From NCBI GenBank assembly GCA_944390305.1, contig CALXPX010000001.1:1-26911 (forward strand): a stretch of DNA of 26,911 nucleotides. The letters run 5' to 3'. Shown here piece after piece: positions 16,795 through 22,932 of the stretch. Every line of letters begins with the position of its first letter. The stretch's first letter is position 1. The position numbers were made by a program, and so were the translations under genes. The DNA is from an uncultured Clostridia bacterium (lineage in GTDB: Bacteria; Bacillota; Clostridia; TANB77; CAG-508). Under the pieces are notes generated by a model. It was given only the letters and a program-made list of their open reading frames with translations, did no database searches and was not told where the DNA came from.

Positions 16795-17952
16795 TTAATA
16801 ATTTATTTTTAGCAAATCTATAAATACAAAGCTACACGAAAACCGTATATAAACATCAGGATTGTCTGGATAGTTATTCCAACGAGATGATGTTGGATTG
16901 CCAGATCCAGAATTGTGGTAATCTCCCCCTCGATCAACTCGATAGCCAGTAGATTTCTCCTTCATTGTCCATTCAAACACGTTTCCTGCCAAATCATAAA
17001 TATTATTTACTCTATAATTATCATTTGATCCACATCTTGCTAATTTTCCTGAATAATTTCCTTTATCTGTTGAATTTCTTACGAACGATTTTTCGTCACA
17101 ATTTGATGTCTTATAACTTGGGTCTATCCACGTCATTATTGCATCCCACTGTACTCCATATATTAGCGTACTTGTTACATTATATCTACTTTTATCTGTA
17201 TACATTCCTTGCGATTTTGCAACTGCTCCTTCTGTTCCTATAGATGTCATACTTTCTCCCCATGTTATATTGTTCCACACTTCTGCTCCCTTTTTGCTTA
17301 CTACTATATCTACTCCATCTATATTTTCTTTTCCTGCTTCATATCTTGCTACATAAAATCCTTTATTGTCTTCTACACTTTGTTTCATATTATTATATTC
17401 TTCTAGTTCATTTGGATATCTATATCCTTCTGGTGATGGTTCTGAACATTCTATAAAATACGCTGAGTTTGGTGAATCCTTATAATAACTTGTATATCTT
17501 ATAAACTCATCTATATTTTCTACTGGAACCCATACAAATTGATTCCCAATTAAACCATCTCCTGGTATATTGGCTTGGTCTGTATATTTTTCTTTTGAGT
17601 ATTTATTCTCATCTGCTTTTGCATCTGATATTACTATTCCATCTGATTTAGTTCCCCCAACATAATAAAAGCCTTTTGGCACTTTTACTCCTTCTACTTT
17701 TACTTCTTCATTCATATATTTATCTATGAAGTTTGATGCTTTATTTAATTCATCTTGTTCCTTAAGGCTAGCTATTTCATATCTATCTACCGCATTCTCT
17801 GCTCTTGTAAATATTCCATTAGTTCCTATTGTTAAATTTATTGCTACTCCTGCTAAGATTAATAATACTATTATTGTAACCACTAATGCTATTAATGTTA
17901 TTCCTCTTATCCCACTTTTTACTTTTTCAACTACTTTTTTCTCTTTTTCCAT
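16795..17952 (-). CDS. Pilin-like N-terminus plus C-terminal FGE-sulfatase/CLec-like domain; frameshifted about 9 codons before the expected end
   Basis: G|ITLIALVVTIIVLLILAGVAI class III-like signal; 'GNQFVWVPV', 'GFYVARYEAG', 'NIYDLAGNVFEWT', 'RGG'. GFRVALYL* lies out of frame at 16844-16818. Confidence 0.8.
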   Translation of the reverse strand: MEKEKKVVEKVKSGIRGITLIALVVTIIVLLILAGVAINLTIGTNGIFTRAENAVDRYEIASLKEQDELNKASNFIDKYMNEEVKVEGVKVPKGFYYVGGTKSDGIVISDAKADENKYSKEKYTDQANIPGDGLIGNQFVWVPVENIDEFIRYTSYYKDSPNSAYFIECSEPSPEGYRYPNELEEYNNMKQSVEDNKGFYVARYEAGKENIDGVDIVVSKKGAEVWNNITWGESMTSIGTEGAVAKSQGMYTDKSRYNVTSTLIYGVQWDAIMTWIDPSYKTSNCDEKSFVRNSTDKGNYSGKLARCGSNDNYRVNNIYDLAGNVFEWTMKEKSTGYRVDRGGDYHNSGSGNPTSSRWNNYPDNPDVYIRFSCSFVFIDLLKINY

Positions 17953-17982: not shown

Positions 17983-18022
17983 AAAAAACTATGCTATTTA
18001 GATTCGTCTAAAAAGCATAGTT
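17983..18022 (-). terminator. Leader terminator 1, upstream of the pilin-CLec gene
   Basis: AACTATGCTTTTTAGA-cgaa-TCTAAATAGCATAGTT (one mismatch) followed by T's, about 30 nt before the start codon. Confidence 0.85.
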
Positions 18023-18059
18023 CTATCTCTATGTTTACATAAGTTTATTTTGTTAAATC

Positions 18060-18113
18060 CTACGATATATATATATATATATATACAGCCTCAAGGCTTA
18101 TCTGTCTTTTTAT
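18060..18113 (-). other. Putative leader ORF 1 (ATA start): IKRQISLEAVYIYIYIS*
   Basis: AGGAG-N7-ATA, in the same frame as the ATG-started leader of copy 2. The start codon is non-canonical. Confidence 0.45.
18065..18085. repeat. 21-nt (AT)n microsatellite, copy 1
   Basis: TACG-(AT)10A-CAGCC read directly from the sequence. Confidence 0.97.
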
Positions 18114-18147
18114 TTGTTTTCTCCTATTTTATTTTTTTATTATATTT

Positions 18148-18176
18148 ATTTTATATGTTTTTATTTCTTTAGTCAA
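18148..18176 (-). promoter_or_regulatory. Sigma-A-like promoter for leader 1
   Basis: TTGACT (18176-18171), 17 nt, TAAAAT (18153-18148). Confidence 0.7.
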
Positions 18177-18239
18177 TATTTTTATAATGAAAGTTTTTTT
18201 TCAGTATATTTCTATATTTAATTATATACTTTTTTAATT

Positions 18240-19199
18240 TTATTTTATCTTTTCTATTTCTATTATTTTATTTATTTCACTAATTGCTCTTAACTTTTGA
18301 GAATGTATTTGTGTATTGTTATATGTTTTTATAAAATATTCACAATTTTTTAAGTCCATAAAAGATGTATATTGTGTATAATCATTCTTTCCACTACTTG
18401 TTACAACAATGCCTTTTGGAATACTTACAGATTCCATTATATGAAAATATGTTATGATTGCTTCATTTTTGTTATTTGGTATTTCTACATGAGATTTTAA
18501 AAATGCTGCTCTTACAAATCTTGATGGTGGTGTAAAATCTCCTGGAATACCTATTAATCCTGCACCCTGACCAAATGGTGTTAAATAAATTTTTTCCCAT
18601 CTAGATTCATTATACTGAATAGGAGATAAATTCATGTAATTTCTTAAATTTGTTATATGCCATTCTAAATTAGGACTATTAGTAAGCACTCCTATCGGGT
18701 TTAATAGCAAATGCATTCCATCTTCTCTGTTTTCTAATATTAGACATTTCCCATTACTATCTACAATTATCCAATGCAAAGGAGCTATAGTATTTGTTAT
18801 ATTATCTTTTATTCCAATTATAGAAGTATTATATAGTAAAAAGCAAGCTTCATCAATATTACTACAATTTCCCAATAAGAATTTAACTATGTTTACCGAA
18901 TCAATATTATATTTTTTATTTGTATACATTTTTTCATATTTTGCGAAACCTGGAAAATATAGACTTGCAACAGCTAATCCCTTTTCATTAACTCCATCTG
19001 CAAATACTATATCTTCTACCTTCTGCCCCATTCCTATAAATGAATATTTATTTTTTATTTGCATATTAGATGATACATTTTTCCAATTATAATTTCTAGG
19101 ACAAATATATATCGATGGATTTAAATCATATGAAAAATCCATCGTTCTACCGAAATACCAATTTCTTTGCTTATCACTAAAGTTAATTGCTGTACACAT
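18240..19199 (-). CDS. Choloylglycine hydrolase family Ntn-hydrolase (bile salt hydrolase / penicillin V acylase)
   Basis: N-terminal MCT nucleophile, 'FGRTMDF', 'DGVNEKGL', 'LTNSP', 'GIPGDFTPPSRFVRA', 'YTQYT'. Confidence 0.92.
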   Translation of the reverse strand: MCTAINFSDKQRNWYFGRTMDFSYDLNPSIYICPRNYNWKNVSSNMQIKNKYSFIGMGQKVEDIVFADGVNEKGLAVASLYFPGFAKYEKMYTNKKYNIDSVNIVKFLLGNCSNIDEACFLLYNTSIIGIKDNITNTIAPLHWIIVDSNGKCLILENREDGMHLLLNPIGVLTNSPNLEWHITNLRNYMNLSPIQYNESRWEKIYLTPFGQGAGLIGIPGDFTPPSRFVRAAFLKSHVEIPNNKNEAIITYFHIMESVSIPKGIVVTSSGKNDYTQYTSFMDLKNCEYFIKTYNNTQIHSQKLRAISEINKIIEIEKIK

Positions 19200-19224
19200 A
19201 TTTTCTCCTTTAGTTATCTGAATT

Positions 19225-19923
19225 TTATTCTTTTATTTCTTTTGCAAGTTTTCCTATCGCTCTTGTTTCTATTCTTGATACATAAGAACGTGAAATTCCC
19301 ATATCACTTGCAATTTCTTTTTGAGTCTTTGGTTTTTCTCCATTAAGACCAAATCTTAATTCTATTATAGTCCTTTCTCTGTTTTTTAGAACCTTTTTTA
19401 TTTTTTCATATAACTTTGATATTTTCATTTTAAGATCCACTTCTTCATCAATTGGTCTTTCTTCATTTTCCAAGACTTCTTTTAATGTTACTGTATTATC
19501 GTCTTTATCTTTACCAATTGGATCTTCTAAATACACTTCTGAATTTATTCTTTTAGTAGCTCTTAAATACATAAGAATTTCATTATCTATACATTTTGAT
19601 ATATATGTAGATATTTTTATAGACTTTTTTGAATCATAACTATTTATTCCTTTTATTAATCCTATTGATCCTATAGATATTAAGTCATCTTGATCTATAT
19701 TTGTATTTGAATATTTTTTACATACATGAGCTACTAATCTTAAATTGTGTTCTATTAATATGTTTTTAGCTTCTATATCTCCTTTTTCCATTCTCTCTAC
19801 ATACATTTTTTCTTCATTAGGAGTTAAACTTTCTGGAAAAAGACTATTGTTTGATATGTACCCTAATATAAATATAGCTGAACCTAAAAATGCTAAAAAT
19901 CCTGATATTGTAATCGTTAACAT
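19225..19923 (-). CDS. sigK: Sporulation sigma factor pro-sigmaK, uninterrupted
   Basis: Hydrophobic pro-sequence then 'GYISNNSLFPESL', 'LIEHNLRLVAH', 'DDLISIGSIGLIK', 'TQKEIA..MGISRSYVSRIE'. Start placed at ATG 19923 (GGAGGTG RBS). Confidence 0.9.
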   Translation of the reverse strand: MLTITISGFLAFLGSAIFILGYISNNSLFPESLTPNEEKMYVERMEKGDIEAKNILIEHNLRLVAHVCKKYSNTNIDQDDLISIGSIGLIKGINSYDSKKSIKISTYISKCIDNEILMYLRATKRINSEVYLEDPIGKDKDDNTVTLKEVLENEERPIDEEVDLKMKISKLYEKIKKVLKNRERTIIELRFGLNGEKPKTQKEIASDMGISRSYVSRIETRAIGKLAKEIKE

Positions 19924-19956
19924 ATATGCACCTCCAACATTTTCTCTCATACATTA

Positions 19957-19984
19957 ATTATATGTTAAAAAATTTTTCAATGTG
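19957..19984 (-). promoter_or_regulatory. SigK/SigE-type mother-cell promoter upstream of sigK
   Basis: CACA (19984-19981), 16 nt, CATATAAT (19964-19957), matching the B. subtilis mACa-N16-CATAnnnT consensus. Confidence 0.6.
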
Positions 19985-20080
19985 CATGACCCATGAAAAA
20001 GGCCAAAGTATTGTTTTCTTTTTATATTAAATATTCTATTTTTCTTTATTGTTTTAATTTACTTTTTACTAATAAATAAA

Positions 20081-20116
20081 AAACTCTAAGATTAATAATT
20101 AATCTTTAGAGCTTTT
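20081..20116 (-). terminator. Probable terminator after the U32 gene
   Basis: AAACTCTAAGATTAAT.../...TTAATCTTTAGAGCTTT imperfect inverted repeat with a minus-strand T-run. Confidence 0.55.
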
Positions 20117-20136
20117 AATATTTATATCGAAGTATT

Positions 20137-21369
20137 TTATATTTTCTTTTTTCTTATTATAAACCCTTCTTCACATTTAATTGGCAGATGCATTAATACT
20201 TTCTGTCCATCTTTTCCTGGATTTACATATTCAATTTCTTTTCCAGTTTCATCGTCCCACATATTATTTATAGTGAATTCTTCTACTTCTATTTTATTAG
20301 GAATGATAATTTCCATTTTATTCCCAACTTCTAATCTGTTTTTTACAGCTAAAACTGATTTATCCTCATTATATTCCATAACCTGACATGCATATTCATA
20401 TTTTGCATTATATTGTTTTCCTTCATATTCTTGAAAGTCTTTGTTATTTTTATCTTCAAAGAAGAATGTTGTAAGTCCTCTAGTTTTTGTTTTTTCTAAT
20501 TCATTTAAATATTTCTCATAATTAAATTTTTCGTGATTATTTATATAGTCATCTATTGCTGTTCTATATGTATTTACTACACTTGCTAAATAATATTCAG
20601 ATTTTAGTCTTCCTTCTATTTTTAAACTAGTAACTCCCATTTCAATTATTTCTGGAATTTGTTTAATTAGGCATAGATCTTTTGAGGATAATATATATGT
20701 TCCATTTGTATCTGTTTCTACAGGCATTAAATTACCCGGATTTTGTTTTTCTTCTAGATATAAATTATATGCCCATCTACAACTTTGTGCACAATCACCT
20801 AAATTTGCATTTCTACAAGCTAGAAAATCACTTAAATAGCATCTTCCGGAATATGCCCAGCAAATGGCTCCATGAACAAATATTTCAGTTTCTAATCCTT
20901 GAGGAGTATTATCTATTAGGTATTTAATTTGCTCTTTGTTCATTTCTCTAGAAAGTATTACTCTTTTTGCTCCATTTCTATACCAAAAATTAGCTGCGTG
21001 ACTACTTAATGTGTTTGCTTGTGTACTTATATGTATTGGAATATCTGGAGCCACATTTTTAATCACTTCAATTACTCCCCCGTCAGATGCAATTATTCCA
21101 TCTACTGCTAATTTATTTAATATTTTTACTTGATTTACGATTTCTTCATACATACTATCCCCAGCATATATATTAATTGCTGCATATACTCTTTTCCCTA
21201 TACTATGAGCATATTTAATAGTATTTGCCAAATCTTCATCATCTACTTCTGCTCTACTTCTTAAAGATAAAGCACCTGTTCCACAATATACAGCATCTGC
21301 TCCATATTTAAATGCTACTTTTGCTTTTTCAAAAGACCCAGCTGGTGCTAATAATTCAGGTTTTTCCAT
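20137..21369 (-). CDS. U32 'peptidase' family protein (TrhP/YegQ-like, probable tRNA hydroxylation)
   Basis: 'PELLAPAG', 'GADAVY.G', 'IHISTQAN', Fe-S cysteines 'HGAICWAYSGRC...N.GDCAQSCR', 'SLKIEGR'. Start placed at the second ATG (21369). Confidence 0.85.
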   Translation of the reverse strand: MEKPELLAPAGSFEKAKVAFKYGADAVYCGTGALSLRSRAEVDDEDLANTIKYAHSIGKRVYAAINIYAGDSMYEEIVNQVKILNKLAVDGIIASDGGVIEVIKNVAPDIPIHISTQANTLSSHAANFWYRNGAKRVILSREMNKEQIKYLIDNTPQGLETEIFVHGAICWAYSGRCYLSDFLACRNANLGDCAQSCRWAYNLYLEEKQNPGNLMPVETDTNGTYILSSKDLCLIKQIPEIIEMGVTSLKIEGRLKSEYYLASVVNTYRTAIDDYINNHEKFNYEKYLNELEKTKTRGLTTFFFEDKNNKDFQEYEGKQYNAKYEYACQVMEYNEDKSVLAVKNRLEVGNKMEIIIPNKIEVEEFTINNMWDDETGKEIEYVNPGKDGQKVLMHLPIKCEEGFIIRKKKI

Positions 21370-21414
21370 ATACATTCCTTTCTATATACTTTTTTTACTA
21401 CTTTATTTTTTTAT

Positions 21415-21443
21415 ATTATATTATTTTTTCTATCATTTAGCAA
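21415..21443 (-). promoter_or_regulatory. Sigma-A-like promoter of the U32 gene
   Basis: TTGCTA (21443-21438), 17 nt, TATAAT (21420-21415). Confidence 0.65.
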
Positions 21444-21475
21444 GTAGAGTTTATATTATTTTATTTAATAATAGT

Positions 21476-22717
21476 TTATAAAAATAAAGCAATACGAAAA
21501 GTACCAAAAAGGCTTGCATTTGTATCAACATAAAAACGGCATCCAGCTGGTCCAGCAATATAACTATTTTCTGCATAACAGCCTCCTCTAGCAGTCAGTT
21601 CTGCAATGTGAATTTCACTACTTCTTTCATAACAATTTCCGCCCATATCATATATATTGCTTACTGCTGTTGTTTGCCCTGTTGGTACTAATACTTCTGT
21701 ATTTTGTTCTTTTATTTGATTTTTTCCTAATATATCTATATAACTAAATTCAGATTCATAATTATTTCCTTGTGGTGAATTTATTCCATAATTTGTAGTT
21801 TTTATTTGTATAAAATTTATTGCTGTATCCCATGCATAACTACTTACTAATTTAGTTTTAGTATTATATCCATTTTTACTAGCCATTCCTTCTGATACTT
21901 TCTTTGAATTATCATAAGTTATATAATTATATGGTGCTTGTCCAGATTTTATTGCTACCTCATTACTTTGGCTATCTCCACTTTCTCTCAATTTTTTAGC
22001 TTCTGTTGATACTTTATCTCCTGATTCGAATCTTCCTATATAATAGCCTCCATTTGCATTTACACTTGCTTCTTCATCTGTTGGTAATGTTTCTGAATAC
22101 TCTCCATAATTTCCGGCATTTTTTCCAAAATCCGTTCTTTGATAAATAATAGTTTTATCTCCTATGCTTGTATGTATAGTTACACCTGATCCTGTTTTTG
22201 CTGGTATCCATACAAATTGGTTTCCTTCTTTATCTTCTATTACTACTCCATCTTCTACTAAATCTGCTGTTTCTTCTGATACCTTAAATCCTTCTGGTAA
22301 TGTTATCTTATTTCCTAAGTCATCTACTACTTCTTTATCTTCTTCAAAATATGCATCTTTATCTTTTAGGTATGATACTTTATTAGATGTAAGCATTGTT
22401 CCTACTATCTTTTCTCCATTTACATATCCTGTCTTTCCCCATTCTATATCTTCTGCTTTTGCTGTTGCATCTGATGTATCCAAAACTTCTAATTCTCCTG
22501 TTATTCCTCCTATTTTTACTCCTTTTCTTATGTATTTTGCAATTAGACTTGAACTTGTATTTTCTCCTAATTTATATTTTTCTTCTTCTGCTCTTTTATT
22601 TACTATTACATTTCTTATTAATATACTTCCTACTATTATTCCTATTAGAATTACAACTATAATTAATATTAATAACTTTTTGTTTTTTAGATTTTCTATT
22701 TTTCTTTCTTTTGACAT
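21476..22717 (-). CDS. Membrane-anchored surface protein with C-terminal FGE-sulfatase/CLec-like domain (paralogue of 16795-17952)
   Basis: N-terminal TM; 'GNQFVWIPA', 'GYYIGRFESG', 'LVSSYAWDTAINFI', 'NIYDMGGNCYE', 'RGG', terminal 'TFRIALFL'. Confidence 0.8.
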   Translation of the reverse strand: MSKERKIENLKNKKLLILIIVVILIGIIVGSILIRNVIVNKRAEEEKYKLGENTSSSLIAKYIRKGVKIGGITGELEVLDTSDATAKAEDIEWGKTGYVNGEKIVGTMLTSNKVSYLKDKDAYFEEDKEVVDDLGNKITLPEGFKVSEETADLVEDGVVIEDKEGNQFVWIPAKTGSGVTIHTSIGDKTIIYQRTDFGKNAGNYGEYSETLPTDEEASVNANGGYYIGRFESGDKVSTEAKKLRESGDSQSNEVAIKSGQAPYNYITYDNSKKVSEGMASKNGYNTKTKLVSSYAWDTAINFIQIKTTNYGINSPQGNNYESEFSYIDILGKNQIKEQNTEVLVPTGQTTAVSNIYDMGGNCYERSSEIHIAELTARGGCYAENSYIAGPAGCRFYVDTNASLFGTFRIALFL

Positions 22718-22749
22718 ATTTTTTCTCCTTTTACTTTTTTATATAACGC

Positions 22750-22792
22750 AAAAAAACTATGCCTTTTAGATTCGTCTAAAAAGCATAGTTTT
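22750..22792 (-). terminator. Leader terminator 2
   Basis: AAAACTATGCTTTTTAGA-cgaa-TCTAAAAGGCATAGTTTT (18 bp, one G-U), ending in a T7 run. Confidence 0.88.
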
Positions 22793-22861
22793 ATTTCTAT
22801 GTTTACATAAGCTTATTTTGTTAAATCCTACGATATATATATATATATATATACAGCCTCA
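22751..22861. repeat. 111-bp direct repeat, copy 2 (leader element)
   Basis: 106/111 identical to 17983-18093. Confidence 0.95.
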
Positions 22862-22875
22862 GCGTTTTTAAGCAT
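22828..22875 (-). other. Putative leader ORF 2: MLKNAEAVYIYIYIS*
   Basis: ATG at 22875 preceded by AAAGGAAAAGGTAAG; the TA tract encodes YIYIYI; TAG at 22830-22828. Confidence 0.65.
22833..22853. repeat. 21-nt (AT)n microsatellite, copy 2
   Basis: TACG-(AT)10A-CAGCC, same length as copy 1. Confidence 0.97.
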
Positions 22876-22903
22876 TTTCTTACCTTTTCCTTTATTTTTT
22901 TAT

Positions 22904-22932
22904 ATAATACCATTATTTAATTTTTATTTCAA
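22904..22932 (-). promoter_or_regulatory. Sigma-A-like promoter for leader 2
   Basis: TTGAAA (22932-22927), 17 nt, TATTAT (22909-22904), with an extended TGn. Confidence 0.7.

Follow-up and report, generated by a model that had tools for sequence, protein, structure and literature searches.

Within the window, the whole 26,911-nt stretch of DNA that was analysed, the minus strand carries two copies, A and B, of a short element, each upstream of a gene whose product has a pilin-like N-terminus (copy A) or an N-terminal membrane anchor (copy B; Table 1). The source genome is a chicken-gut Clostridia assembly of 64% completeness. The two copies were found to be identical at 106 of 111 positions, the value given in the first-pass annotation, and its description of the three reading frames was reproduced in both. 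With the present (TA)n tract of 21 nt the frame ends in ...YIYIYIS-TAG, with 23 nt it ends in YRRI-TAA, and with 19 or 25 nt it reads IVGFNKI(N/S)LCKHR..TMLFRRI and stops only in the 3' arm of a 16-bp hairpin that precedes a T run. The downstream genes had been called highly diverged, and indeed the two proteins share only 26% identity, in the C-terminal region. Homologues of the copy A protein often bear the FGE-sulfatase/C-type-lectin-like PF03781, and Pfam and NCBIfam searches with the 385-aa protein itself gave no match. In both copies, the start codon of the target gene follows the T run after about 30 nt, too short a distance to accommodate a separate promoter.

Table 1. Coordinates of the two cassette copies in the window and of their target genes
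Feature	Position	Strand	Remarks
Copy A element	18093-17983	minus	
Copy A promoter, TTGACT-17 nt-TAAAAT	18148..18176	-	10/12 consensus matches
Copy A SD of leader mini-ORF, AGGAG	18121..18125	-	sequence
Copy A leader mini-ORF, present phase, (ATA)-KRQISLEAVYIYIYIS-TAG	18060..18113	-	start position 18113-18111 is ATA
Copy A (TA)n tract, 21 nt	18065..18085	.	sequence
Copy A TAA, closes second short frame (17/23-nt phase, ...YRRI-stop)	18053..18055	-	stop conserved at +9 in nearly all 114 copies
Copy A intrinsic terminator (predicted)	17983..18022	-	RNAfold; 5' arm 18022-18007, loop CGAA 18006-18003, 3' arm 18002-17987, T run to 17983
Copy A long-frame stop, TAA	18000-17998	-	within 3' arm
Copy A target gene, 385-aa protein, pilin-like N-terminus (RGITLIALVVTIIVLLILAGV)	16795..17952	-	
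Copy B element	22861-22751	minus	
Copy B promoter, TTGAAA-17 nt-TATTAT, upstream TG	22904..22932	-	10/12 consensus matches
Copy B purine-rich SD before mini-ORF, AAAGG	22887-22883	-	
Copy B leader mini-ORF, MLKNAEAVYIYIYIS	22828..22875	-	ATG 22875-22873, TAG 22830-22828
Copy B (TA)n tract, 21 nt	22833..22853	.	
Copy B TAA, closes second short frame	22821..22823	-	
Copy B intrinsic terminator (predicted)	22750..22792	-	18 pairs, loop of 4, T tail; 5' arm 22790-22775, loop 22774-22771, 3' arm 22770-22755, T run to 22750
Copy B long-frame stop, TAA	22768-22766	-	within 3' arm
Copy B target gene, 413-aa protein, N-terminal membrane anchor	21476..22717	-	second family behind the cassette

The element had been thought to be present twice. 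It is a family of dozens of copies and not a pair: at least 24 copies were found in the window genome, copies in the genomes of relatives number in the hundreds, and 16 of the 44 species of the genus contain it, mostly in many copies. The order of its parts is a sigma-A-type promoter, an SD motif, an ATG mini-ORF, the (TA)n tract, a spacer, and a predicted strong intrinsic terminator. The regions upstream of copies A and B had been described as unrelated; promoter, SD and mini-ORF all turned out to belong to one conserved cassette that is shared across copies. A TTGACw-N17-TATAAAAT promoter box aligns in most copies of the genome, and the N-termini of the mini-ORFs fall into two subtypes, MKxxxKSLEAV and MLKxxEAV. 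Homologous copies devoid of an RBS or start had been named as evidence against the switch; the ATG is present in 109 of 114 parsed copies and the ATG together with an SD in 105, and copy A, with ATA, is an exception. The targets are almost always genes for membrane-anchored or pilin-like surface proteins. For 90 of the 102 copies that could be judged, a same-strand gene with an N-terminal-anchor product lies within 420 nt downstream. Copies also occur in tandem gene arrays, which points to co-duplication with the genes.

The reading frames of the 114 parsed copies were compared. Two frames stop 2 or 9 nt past the tract (+2, +9), and the third is open into the hairpin, to +52 to +64, in 111 copies whatever their current phase. 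Randomly placed substitutions would leave 90 ± 4 long frames open, a comparison in which the counts overstate independence because the copies share descent. An independent set was assembled of 71 copies from more than 20 MAGs, 62 of which have a strong terminator. In 61 of these 62 copies one frame reads into the hairpin, and the other two end 15 nt or more ahead of it; homologous copies thus keep the long frame open, a check that had been suggested at the outset. The same layout of two early stops and one frame into the hairpin is kept by five spacer/terminator types of unrelated sequence, for which shuffling gave P values of 0.15-0.33 for each type and a joint P of about 4.6e-4. The frame layout is beyond chance. 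When stop-creating substitutions were compared by type, a Fisher test was not significant (p = 0.75); its power was low, as a stop would arise from only 10 of the 165 changes that are possible. Variability at the codon positions of the long frame was weakly coding-like (0.13/0.08/0.15). The read-in phase is held by 14-18% of the copies, or one to five per genome, as expected for a mostly silent family of variable surface proteins. One diverged subtype, with three of three sampled copies in the long phase, counts against the proposed switch.

The (TA)n tract ranges from 7 to 37 nt and lies inside the ORF in all copies, where it is read as (Tyr-Ile)n. An invariant tract across strains had been named as a finding that would speak against switching, and the tract is not invariant: of six loci for which independent metagenome assemblies were compared, four showed lengths that vary by 2-nt steps between near-identical flanks. 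One of these orthologous loci has 19 or 17 nt, another 21, 19 or 15 nt; a third has 21 nt in eight samples and also occurs with 19 and with 9 nt, and a fourth has 21 or 23 nt. The lengths were read from assemblies of which some have 3-5x coverage, such that single cases may be PCR or assembly stutter. Logan contigs, the RNA data at hand, end at the repeat. At the same time one length, 21 nt, strongly predominates: it is found in 64 of the 114 parsed copies and in 37 of the 71 copies of the independent set, a preference that frame alone does not explain.

The hairpin, with a family mean energy of about -19 kcal/mol, precedes a T run and is predicted to be an intrinsic terminator. In the hairpin alignment 97.7% of the cells are paired, with compensatory changes at 3 of 16 pairs. 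RNA folding revealed no competing antiterminator; the best alternative partner of the 5' arm was CAUAG/CUAUG, with -3.3 kcal/mol. An amino-acid-sensing attenuator of the trp/his type was rejected on this ground, -3.3 kcal/mol standing against about -19 kcal/mol for the terminator. A search of Rfam 15 yielded no family match near the gathering score, and the only hit, mir-651 on the hairpin, was spurious (27.6 bits versus a threshold of 106, E = 0.048).

It is likely that the cassette is a phase-variable, translation-dependent attenuator that is ON only with tracts of 19, 25 or 13 nt. Each copy would be a self-contained control cassette before a surface-protein gene. At the head of the transcript from a constitutive-looking promoter would stand a short translated leader ORF that includes the (TA)n tract; the strong terminator would follow 40-50 nt further on, and after it the ribosome-binding site of the gene. 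Slipped-strand mispairing at replication would alter the tract by 2 nt and thereby move the leader ORF among three phases. In the 21/15/9-nt and 17/23/11-nt phases the ribosome would meet the stop 2 or 9 nt past the tract and come off the RNA 30 nt or more ahead of the hairpin, so that the terminator could form and expression of the gene would be low. In the 19/25/13-nt phase the ORF would cross the 5' arm and stop in the loop or 3' arm, and a ribosome trailing the polymerase would cover the arm, prevent hairpin formation and let transcription enter the gene. We infer terminator activity, its relief by translation, and the identity of the long phase with ON from the geometry and from analogy with pil1 of S. 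gallolyticus. Both window copies are predicted to be OFF because their tracts have 21 nt. This had been proposed together with a single ON class among the three tract lengths, and the comparative data support it: the open long frames in both sets of copies, the unrelated variants, the 2-nt steps, the lack of a competing antiterminator and the small share of copies in the read-in phase. Tight coupling of transcription and translation is not universal in Firmicutes, which counts against the mechanism.

The first-pass annotation knew of no description of such an architecture. However, a switch that works likewise, based on attenuation at a leader repeat, has been described and tested experimentally for pil1/pil3 of S. 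gallolyticus (Danne 2014, PLoS Pathog, PMC3894217). Its logic was proven there by mutagenesis, with ATG*, three-stop and terminator-deletion mutants (PMC3894217). Like pil1/pil3, the cassette combines a promoter, an SD/ATG leader with a simple repeat of a unit length not divisible by three, a premature terminator, here predicted, and a gene for a surface appendage, and it also shows repeat variation and a phase-dependent stop position; there is no sequence homology, and the shared class is mechanistic and not a homology family. The terminators are similarly strong (-18.7 kcal/mol in S. gallolyticus, PMC3894217, and about -19 kcal/mol in the cassette), and repeat numbers differ between strains in the former and between samples in the latter. 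In S. gallolyticus, the OFF stop precedes the terminator by 49 nt (or at least 28 nt), and ON stops lie beside or inside it (PMC3894217), compared to 30-37 nt for the OFF stops upstream of the hairpin in the cassette. Expression in S. gallolyticus is low with a short leader whose stop is well ahead of the hairpin and high with one that reaches up to or into it, and the same is predicted for the cassette. The two systems differ in the repeat (TA about ten times versus GCAGA 13-22 times), in the share of ON phases (one of three predicted versus two of three), in the number of loci (dozens per genome versus two), in the hosts, which for the cassette are uncultured spore-forming gut Clostridia, and in the targets (pilin-like or membrane-anchored proteins, many with FGE-sulfatase/lectin-like ends, versus sortase pili). 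In the gut Clostridia, a switch principle proven in one streptococcus would thus guard dozens of genes in each genome.

Three further systems share single traits with the cassette. In hifA/hifB of Haemophilus influenzae and in Vmm of Mycoplasma mycoides, a (TA)n tract of about ten units slips between the -35 and -10 boxes and alters promoter spacing. The cassette resembles them in its slipping tract of about ten units and in that a surface structure would be switched. A promoter-spacer switch of this type was nevertheless rejected: the complete TTGACT-17-TAAAAT promoter lies 60-90 nt upstream, and the tract is inside the leader ORF. In copy A, 26 nt separate the tract-adjacent TTGAGG from the nearest -10-like TAGGAT. 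In pyrBI of E. coli the leader ORF overlaps the terminator, as in the cassette, and a closely following ribosome blocks the hairpin; its input is UTP-dependent polymerase pausing, and, unlike the cassette, it is not known to involve a mutable repeat or phase variation. For cwpV of Clostridioides difficile, site-specific DNA inversion driven by a recombinase reportedly sets terminator formation in the 5' leader. Common to cwpV and the cassette are a Clostridia surface protein and terminator control in the 5' leader, but the cwpV switch is not known to involve a repeat tract or leader translation. The phase variation of the CwpV surface protein is described in Emerson et al. 2009 (PMC2784873).

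Several other explanations were weighed against the phase-variable attenuator. Relief of the terminator might come from an antiterminator protein or a small RNA that acts in trans, for example by binding to the spacer (CGTAGGATTTAACAAAATAAACTTATGTAAACATAGA), with tract variation as a tolerated by-product. Within the main family the nucleotide sequence of the spacer is well conserved, and both the weakly coding-like variability of the long frame and the clustering at 21 nt would fit. A sequence-specific binder would, however, not predict that four other types with unrelated spacers and terminators keep the layout, it matters that the leader is translated, as its conserved SD and ATG show, and no Rfam family matched; we regard such a factor as unlikely. 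The Tyr/Ile (UAU/AUA) run could alternatively be a physiological sensor, by stalling at hungry codons or by tRNA or polymerase slippage of ±2 into the long frame, such that OFF copies would be induced without a DNA change. A shift by 2 nt lets UAU and AUA pair again perfectly, and from the dominant 21-nt phase a shift of +2 leads into the long frame; the preferred length also hints at a constraint beyond frame. Yet a ribosome stalled in the tract would stand more than 40 nt before the hairpin with no antiterminator to free, the targets are surface-protein genes and not genes of Tyr/Ile metabolism, and length changes at the DNA level occur and suffice, which makes a sensor very unlikely.

That the cassette is an independent small-peptide gene, encoding the 17-aa ...VYIYIYIS or the 35-aa long-frame peptide and adjacent to surface genes by position only, is highly improbable. 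It does come with a promoter, SD, ATG and terminator of its own, ORFs of 35 and 37 aa were annotated at two loci by gene callers, and the virtual product of the long frame, IV(G/R/S)FNKINLCKHR..M.FRRI, shows fair conservation; on the other hand, the N-terminus is variable, diverged cassette types encode unrelated long-frame peptides, the genes behind copies A and B lack room for a promoter of their own, and most judgeable copies precede a same-strand anchor gene at short distance. A MITE- or REP-like element, dispersed as a mobile or selfish repeat and with no role in regulation, would account for dozens of near-identical copies per genome, at which assemblies break, but it is extremely improbable given the fixed orientation and position relative to one gene class, the co-duplication indicated by the tandem arrays, and a copy alignment with no terminal inverted repeats or target duplications.

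For the phase-variable attenuator itself, an additional layer is conceivable, though we hold it to be improbable: besides the flip at the DNA level, a regulated fraction of ribosomes or transcripts might move by slippage out of the 21-nt phase and into the long frame, because (UAU-AUA)n permits perfect re-pairing of tRNA or of the RNA-DNA hybrid after a 2-nt shift and the tract is tightly centred on 21 nt in different species and paralogues alike. If so, the switch would have two layers, a genetic one set by tract length and a physiology-responsive one set by slippage without a DNA change. Over 30-40 loci, each cell would then show a small, changing subset of surface proteins, which may also be diversified by a retroelement.

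Copy A is probably locked low, beyond being in an OFF phase, because it has no start codon: ATA takes the place of the ATG of other copies. At this locus the ATG is intact in sample L208 and ATA is present in L203 and L202, and in L202 the SD is in addition mutated to AACAA. The tract of the locus also has 21 nt in three other samples. Related genomes without the cassette do contain classical promoter-spacer TA tracts.

The first-pass annotation had described the element as present twice, but an assembly-wide search found at least 24 copies in the window's own genome (1.18 Mb in 134 contigs, 64% complete); the earlier observation was real but under-scaled. When the genomic copies were aligned, their similarity reached well past 111 nt. 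The aligned copies have in common a promoter (TTGACw-N17-TATAAAAT), an AGGAG Shine-Dalgarno (SD) motif, a mini-ORF that starts with ATG and encodes M-K-x-x-x-K-S-L-E-A-V or M-L-K-x-x-E-A-V, and also the tract, the spacer and the terminator. Because promoter, SD motif and mini-ORF are shared, what had been taken for two unrelated promoter/RBS regions are really two subtypes of one cassette.

The host, a spore-forming member of the Clostridia as judged from a SigK/SigE-like sigma factor, comes mainly from chicken-gut metagenomes. The cassette was found in 16 of 44 species representatives of the genus, typically with 10-40 matches each, and a pattern scan with one genome per species detected it in more than 20 MAGs, human-gut and rabbit samples among them. 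In the window genome, nearly all copies lie upstream of, and on the same strand as, a gene of one of two protein families, one with a pilin-like N-terminus (K-G-ITLIALVVTIIVLLILAGVAINLTIGSNGIFTRA...) and one with a charged N-terminus and a single membrane helix. Such a gene starts at most 420 nt downstream in 90 of the 102 copies that could be judged, out of 114 distinct copies from eight species. The expected position ahead of pilin- or lectin-type genes held for these 90 copies, with a pilin-like or membrane-anchored protein gene in each case, but not for all 102. A MITE-like repeat was rejected on the fixed orientation and the association with genes.

The anatomy of the two window copies is listed in the table. 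The elements differ at 5 of 111 positions, confirming their near-identity, and the downstream genes are indeed highly diverged, as the 26% identity of their products (385 and 413 aa) extends over only part of the sequences. The frame bookkeeping was also reproduced. At the present 21 nt the leader ends ...VYIYIYIS-TAG, at 23 nt it would end ...YRRI-TAA, and at 19 or 25 nt it would read IVGFNKI(N/S)LCKHR..TMLFRRI and stop only within the hairpin. The view that a short ORF feeds both elements was wrong for copy A, in which the leader has ATA where other copies have ATG, with no alternative in-frame start codon.

Positions of cassette features in the window and of associated features on other contigs of the window genome
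Feature	Position	Strand	Details
Cassette copy A, element	18093-17983	minus	111 nt
Cassette copy B, element	22861-22751	minus	111 nt
Promoter-like site, copy A	18176-18148	minus	TTGACT-17-TAAAAT; 10/12 consensus matches
Promoter-like site, copy B	22932-22904	minus	TTGAAA-17-TATTAT with TG extension; 10/12 consensus matches
ATA at leader start position, copy A	18113-18111	minus	
TA tract, copy A	18085-18065	minus	alternating, 21 nt
TA tract, copy B	22853-22833	minus	alternating, 21 nt
Spacer, each copy			42 nt, 3' of TA tract
Hairpin, each copy			16 bp, loop CGAA, then six or seven T
Long-frame stop, copy A	18000-17998	minus	within 3' arm
Long-frame stop, copy B	22768-22766	minus	within 3' arm
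SD motif and ATG of the gene, each copy			about 30 nt 3' of hairpin/T run
Copy A protein gene	16795-17952	minus	
Reverse-transcriptase gene and MutS_I-like ORF (locus L237)	C95:2240-2809 and C95:3965-4180		RVT_1, 58 bits (reverse transcriptase)
Cassette with pilin-like gene	C20:1-76		
Prepilin-peptidase-like gene	C20:6624-6959		Peptidase_A24
Long-phase cassette copy (locus L022)	C129:7630-7722		13-nt tract

Next, the frame logic was analyzed in the 114 copies. The tract was 21 nt long in 64 copies, 17 nt in 16, 19 nt in 14, 23 nt in 11, 9 nt in four, 15 nt in two, and 7, 11 or 13 nt in one copy each. In the phase comprising 21, 15 and 9 nt (70 copies) the leader ends with S-stop 2 nt past the tract, and in the phase of 17, 23 and 11 nt (28 copies) it ends with (R/C/H)(R/K)(I/L)-stop 9 nt past it. 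The remaining 16 copies, with 19, 13 or 7 nt, are in the long frame into the hairpin, and there are one to five of these per well-sampled genome. The long frame meets no stop before +52..+64 in 111 of the 114 copies, regardless of their present phase, in agreement with the expectation that it is kept open. In about 100 copies its stop ends 8-27 nt 5' of the T run, that is, in the hairpin loop or arm, and both early stops are retained in nearly all copies, TAG-to-TAA swaps included. Across copies, basic-basic-Ile-stop is a common ending of the second short frame (YRRI*) and of the long frame (FRRI*), which may be a coincidence or reflect a shared termination context.

Random placement of each copy's own number of substitutions left 90 +/- 4 long frames open, compared with the 111 observed, the copies being related by descent. 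A Fisher test on stop-creating substitution types gave p = 0.75 at low power, as 10 of 165 possible changes make a stop and the consensus framing is confounded by indels. A null model of indel placement was judged unfair and discarded because the observed indels cluster at one A-rich spot. Codon-position variability within the long frame was weakly coding-like (0.13/0.08/0.15). We claim from these comparisons that the long frame appears to be selected to stay open; because the codon-position signal is faint, the claim does not extend to a particular peptide sequence.

Another set, of 71 copies, was collected solely via the mini-ORF and the tract head, and the spacers and terminators of some versions in it are unrelated to those of the window in sequence. 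Sixty-two of these copies have a strong hairpin and T run, and in 61 of the 62 exactly two frames stop 15 nt or more ahead of the hairpin, the third reading into or through it; 11 are currently in the reading-in frame. Shuffling of the spacers of five sequence-distinct types produced the layout by chance with P values of 0.15-0.33 each (joint P about 4.6e-4). A divergent copy in a congeneric genome, again located 5' of a pilin-like gene, has the same layout, with a 17-nt tract, early stops at +9 and +17, and a third frame that runs for 106 nt across the hairpins without a stop. The retention of the layout by sequence-unrelated versions is the strongest comparative evidence for the predicted switch.

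Tract lengths at the same locus were compared across assemblies, anchored on exact copies of neighbouring housekeeping proteins; for four neighbour proteins no record matched. The tract of the upp-adjacent locus has 19 nt in the window genome and 17 nt in another sample; the locus on contig C29 has 21, 21, 21, 19 and 15 nt, that on C54 has 21 nt in eight samples and also 19 and 9 nt, and that on C18 has 21 and 23 nt, with coverage of 3-5x for some contigs, at which individual length calls could be stutter. The window copy A locus and the C34 locus have 21 nt in 4 of 4 samples each. Overall, the differences were consistent 2-nt steps within near-identical flanks, which bears out the assumed slippage by whole dinucleotide units. 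Loss of mismatch repair was rejected as the cause because MutS1 and MutL are present in the genome. In the source annotations, the 19-nt variants of the C29 and C54 loci are called as genes of 37 and 35 aa. In both copy sets, lengths peaked strongly at 21 nt and less so at 17 nt, the predicted-ON length of 19 nt between them was under-represented, and lengths equivalent by frame, e.g. 15 or 27 nt, were rare. Frame alone is no explanation for the concentration at 21 nt. Logan contigs that contain the window region are interrupted at the element, with 18058-18156 and 22826-22865 skipped; if the switch is confirmed, the cassette would account for the assembly breaks at its sites in these organisms. 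Gene fragments were present in Logan contigs of two metatranscriptome runs, in which DNA carry-over is possible, so that they are no proof of expression.

Across the family, the hairpin has a mean predicted folding energy of about -19 kcal/mol, the A-tract/U-tract extension included. It is paired in 97.7% of cells, with both partners changed in 3 of 16 pairs, and in some lineages it is lengthened to more than 20 bp. The sole match in an Rfam scan was a sub-threshold hit of mir-651 on the hairpin; therefore, no known RNA family applies. When the leader was folded without the 3' arm, the 5' arm was not sequestered in any stable structure; the best candidate was a CAUAG/CUAUG helix of -3.3 kcal/mol. 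Given this absence, termination is the predicted default state. Competing structures of the trp type are unlikely, as no stable antiterminator was obtained on folding, and a function of the TA tract as promoter spacer was ruled out by the spacing and the complete promoters upstream. The geometry of leader and hairpin fits ribosome occlusion. In the short phases, the stop codon 30-37 nt 5' of the hairpin would leave the terminator free, while in the long phase the ribosome would sit on the 5' arm as the polymerase reaches the T run, and the hairpin would be occluded.

The first-pass annotation knew of no description of this exact architecture. However, a full-text search showed that the same principle has been demonstrated at two loci of Streptococcus gallolyticus (Danne et al. 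2014, PMC3894217). In that system, leader-ORF length is set by GCAGA repeats; short leaders stop 49 nt before a terminator of -18.7 kcal/mol and give low pilus expression, whereas expression is high with longer leaders, which end inside the hairpin or 4 nt short of it (PMC3894217). Mutation of the leader SD motif and ATG locked expression low, and deletion of a hairpin arm locked it high (PMC3894217). The window cassette has a like mode of working and no homology. It differs in the repeat unit (TA), in the number of phases that are ON (one of three predicted, compared with two of three in S. gallolyticus), in the number of loci per genome, in the host lineage and in the target proteins. At the copy A locus, the start signals (18111-18125) were polymorphic across four samples, i.e. 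the window and loci L202, L203 and L208. ATG with AGGAG is present in one sample and ATA with AGGAG in two, one of which is the window; the fourth has ATA and a destroyed SD motif (AACAA). The ATA alleles look like natural locked-low versions of one gene, and the S. gallolyticus ATG* mutant seems to have natural parallels in copy A and its SD-less allele. Together, the comparative evidence and this analogy support well the earlier interpretation of the cassette as a predicted phase-variable, translation-dependent attenuator, read-through itself being predicted.

The main interest lies in scale and in the bearing on surface variation in uncultured gut Firmicutes. Much of the surface-protein repertoire appears to be under the control of the non-homologous dinucleotide version, which has at least 24 loci in the 64%-complete window genome and 20-40 or more in relatives; its carriers are uncultured gut Clostridia of chickens, humans and rabbits. 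If confirmed, the switch would be a general, portable route to stochastic surface variation in Firmicutes and not a streptococcal curiosity, and tract phase would be a simple sequence read-out of the surface proteins that a strain currently expresses.

Pfam and NCBIfam scans of the copy A and copy B proteins gave no matches. More than 7,500 homologues of the copy A protein were scored, and many contain PF03781 (FGE-sulfatase/C-type-lectin-like), a fold that is typical of the targets of diversity-generating retroelements. The window genome has a reverse-transcriptase gene on contig C95, and about 1.2 kb from it lies an ORF of about 150 aa with a MutS_I-like domain; related genomes have small MutS_I ORFs of this kind as well. 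The C95 locus is a possible diversity-generating retroelement, with the MutS-like gene as an accessory. A template/variable repeat pair was searched for around the reverse transcriptase, and nothing convincing was found in the 3.5 kb present. Because many homologues carry this fold and the genome has a reverse transcriptase, the same proteins may be subject both to expression switching and to sequence diversification.

A prepilin-peptidase-like gene is also present in the window genome, about 6.5 kb from a cassette with a pilin-like gene on contig C20, and for this reason the pilin-like N-termini may be processed by type IV pilus-type machinery. The pilin-like N-termini of the target proteins are without the usual Glu at +5. 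The long-phase copy on contig C129 lies 5' of a pilin-like gene with an apparently frame-shifted N-terminal coding region, which is probably a pseudogene. Cassette-free relatives at loci L039/L052, L041 and L040 (related genomes G013, G016 and G033, respectively) carry (TA)10-13 tracts in another setting, directly 3' of TTGA. At L039/L052 and L041 the tracts also lie just 5' of a TATAAT-like box, which is the classical arrangement of promoter-spacer phase variation.
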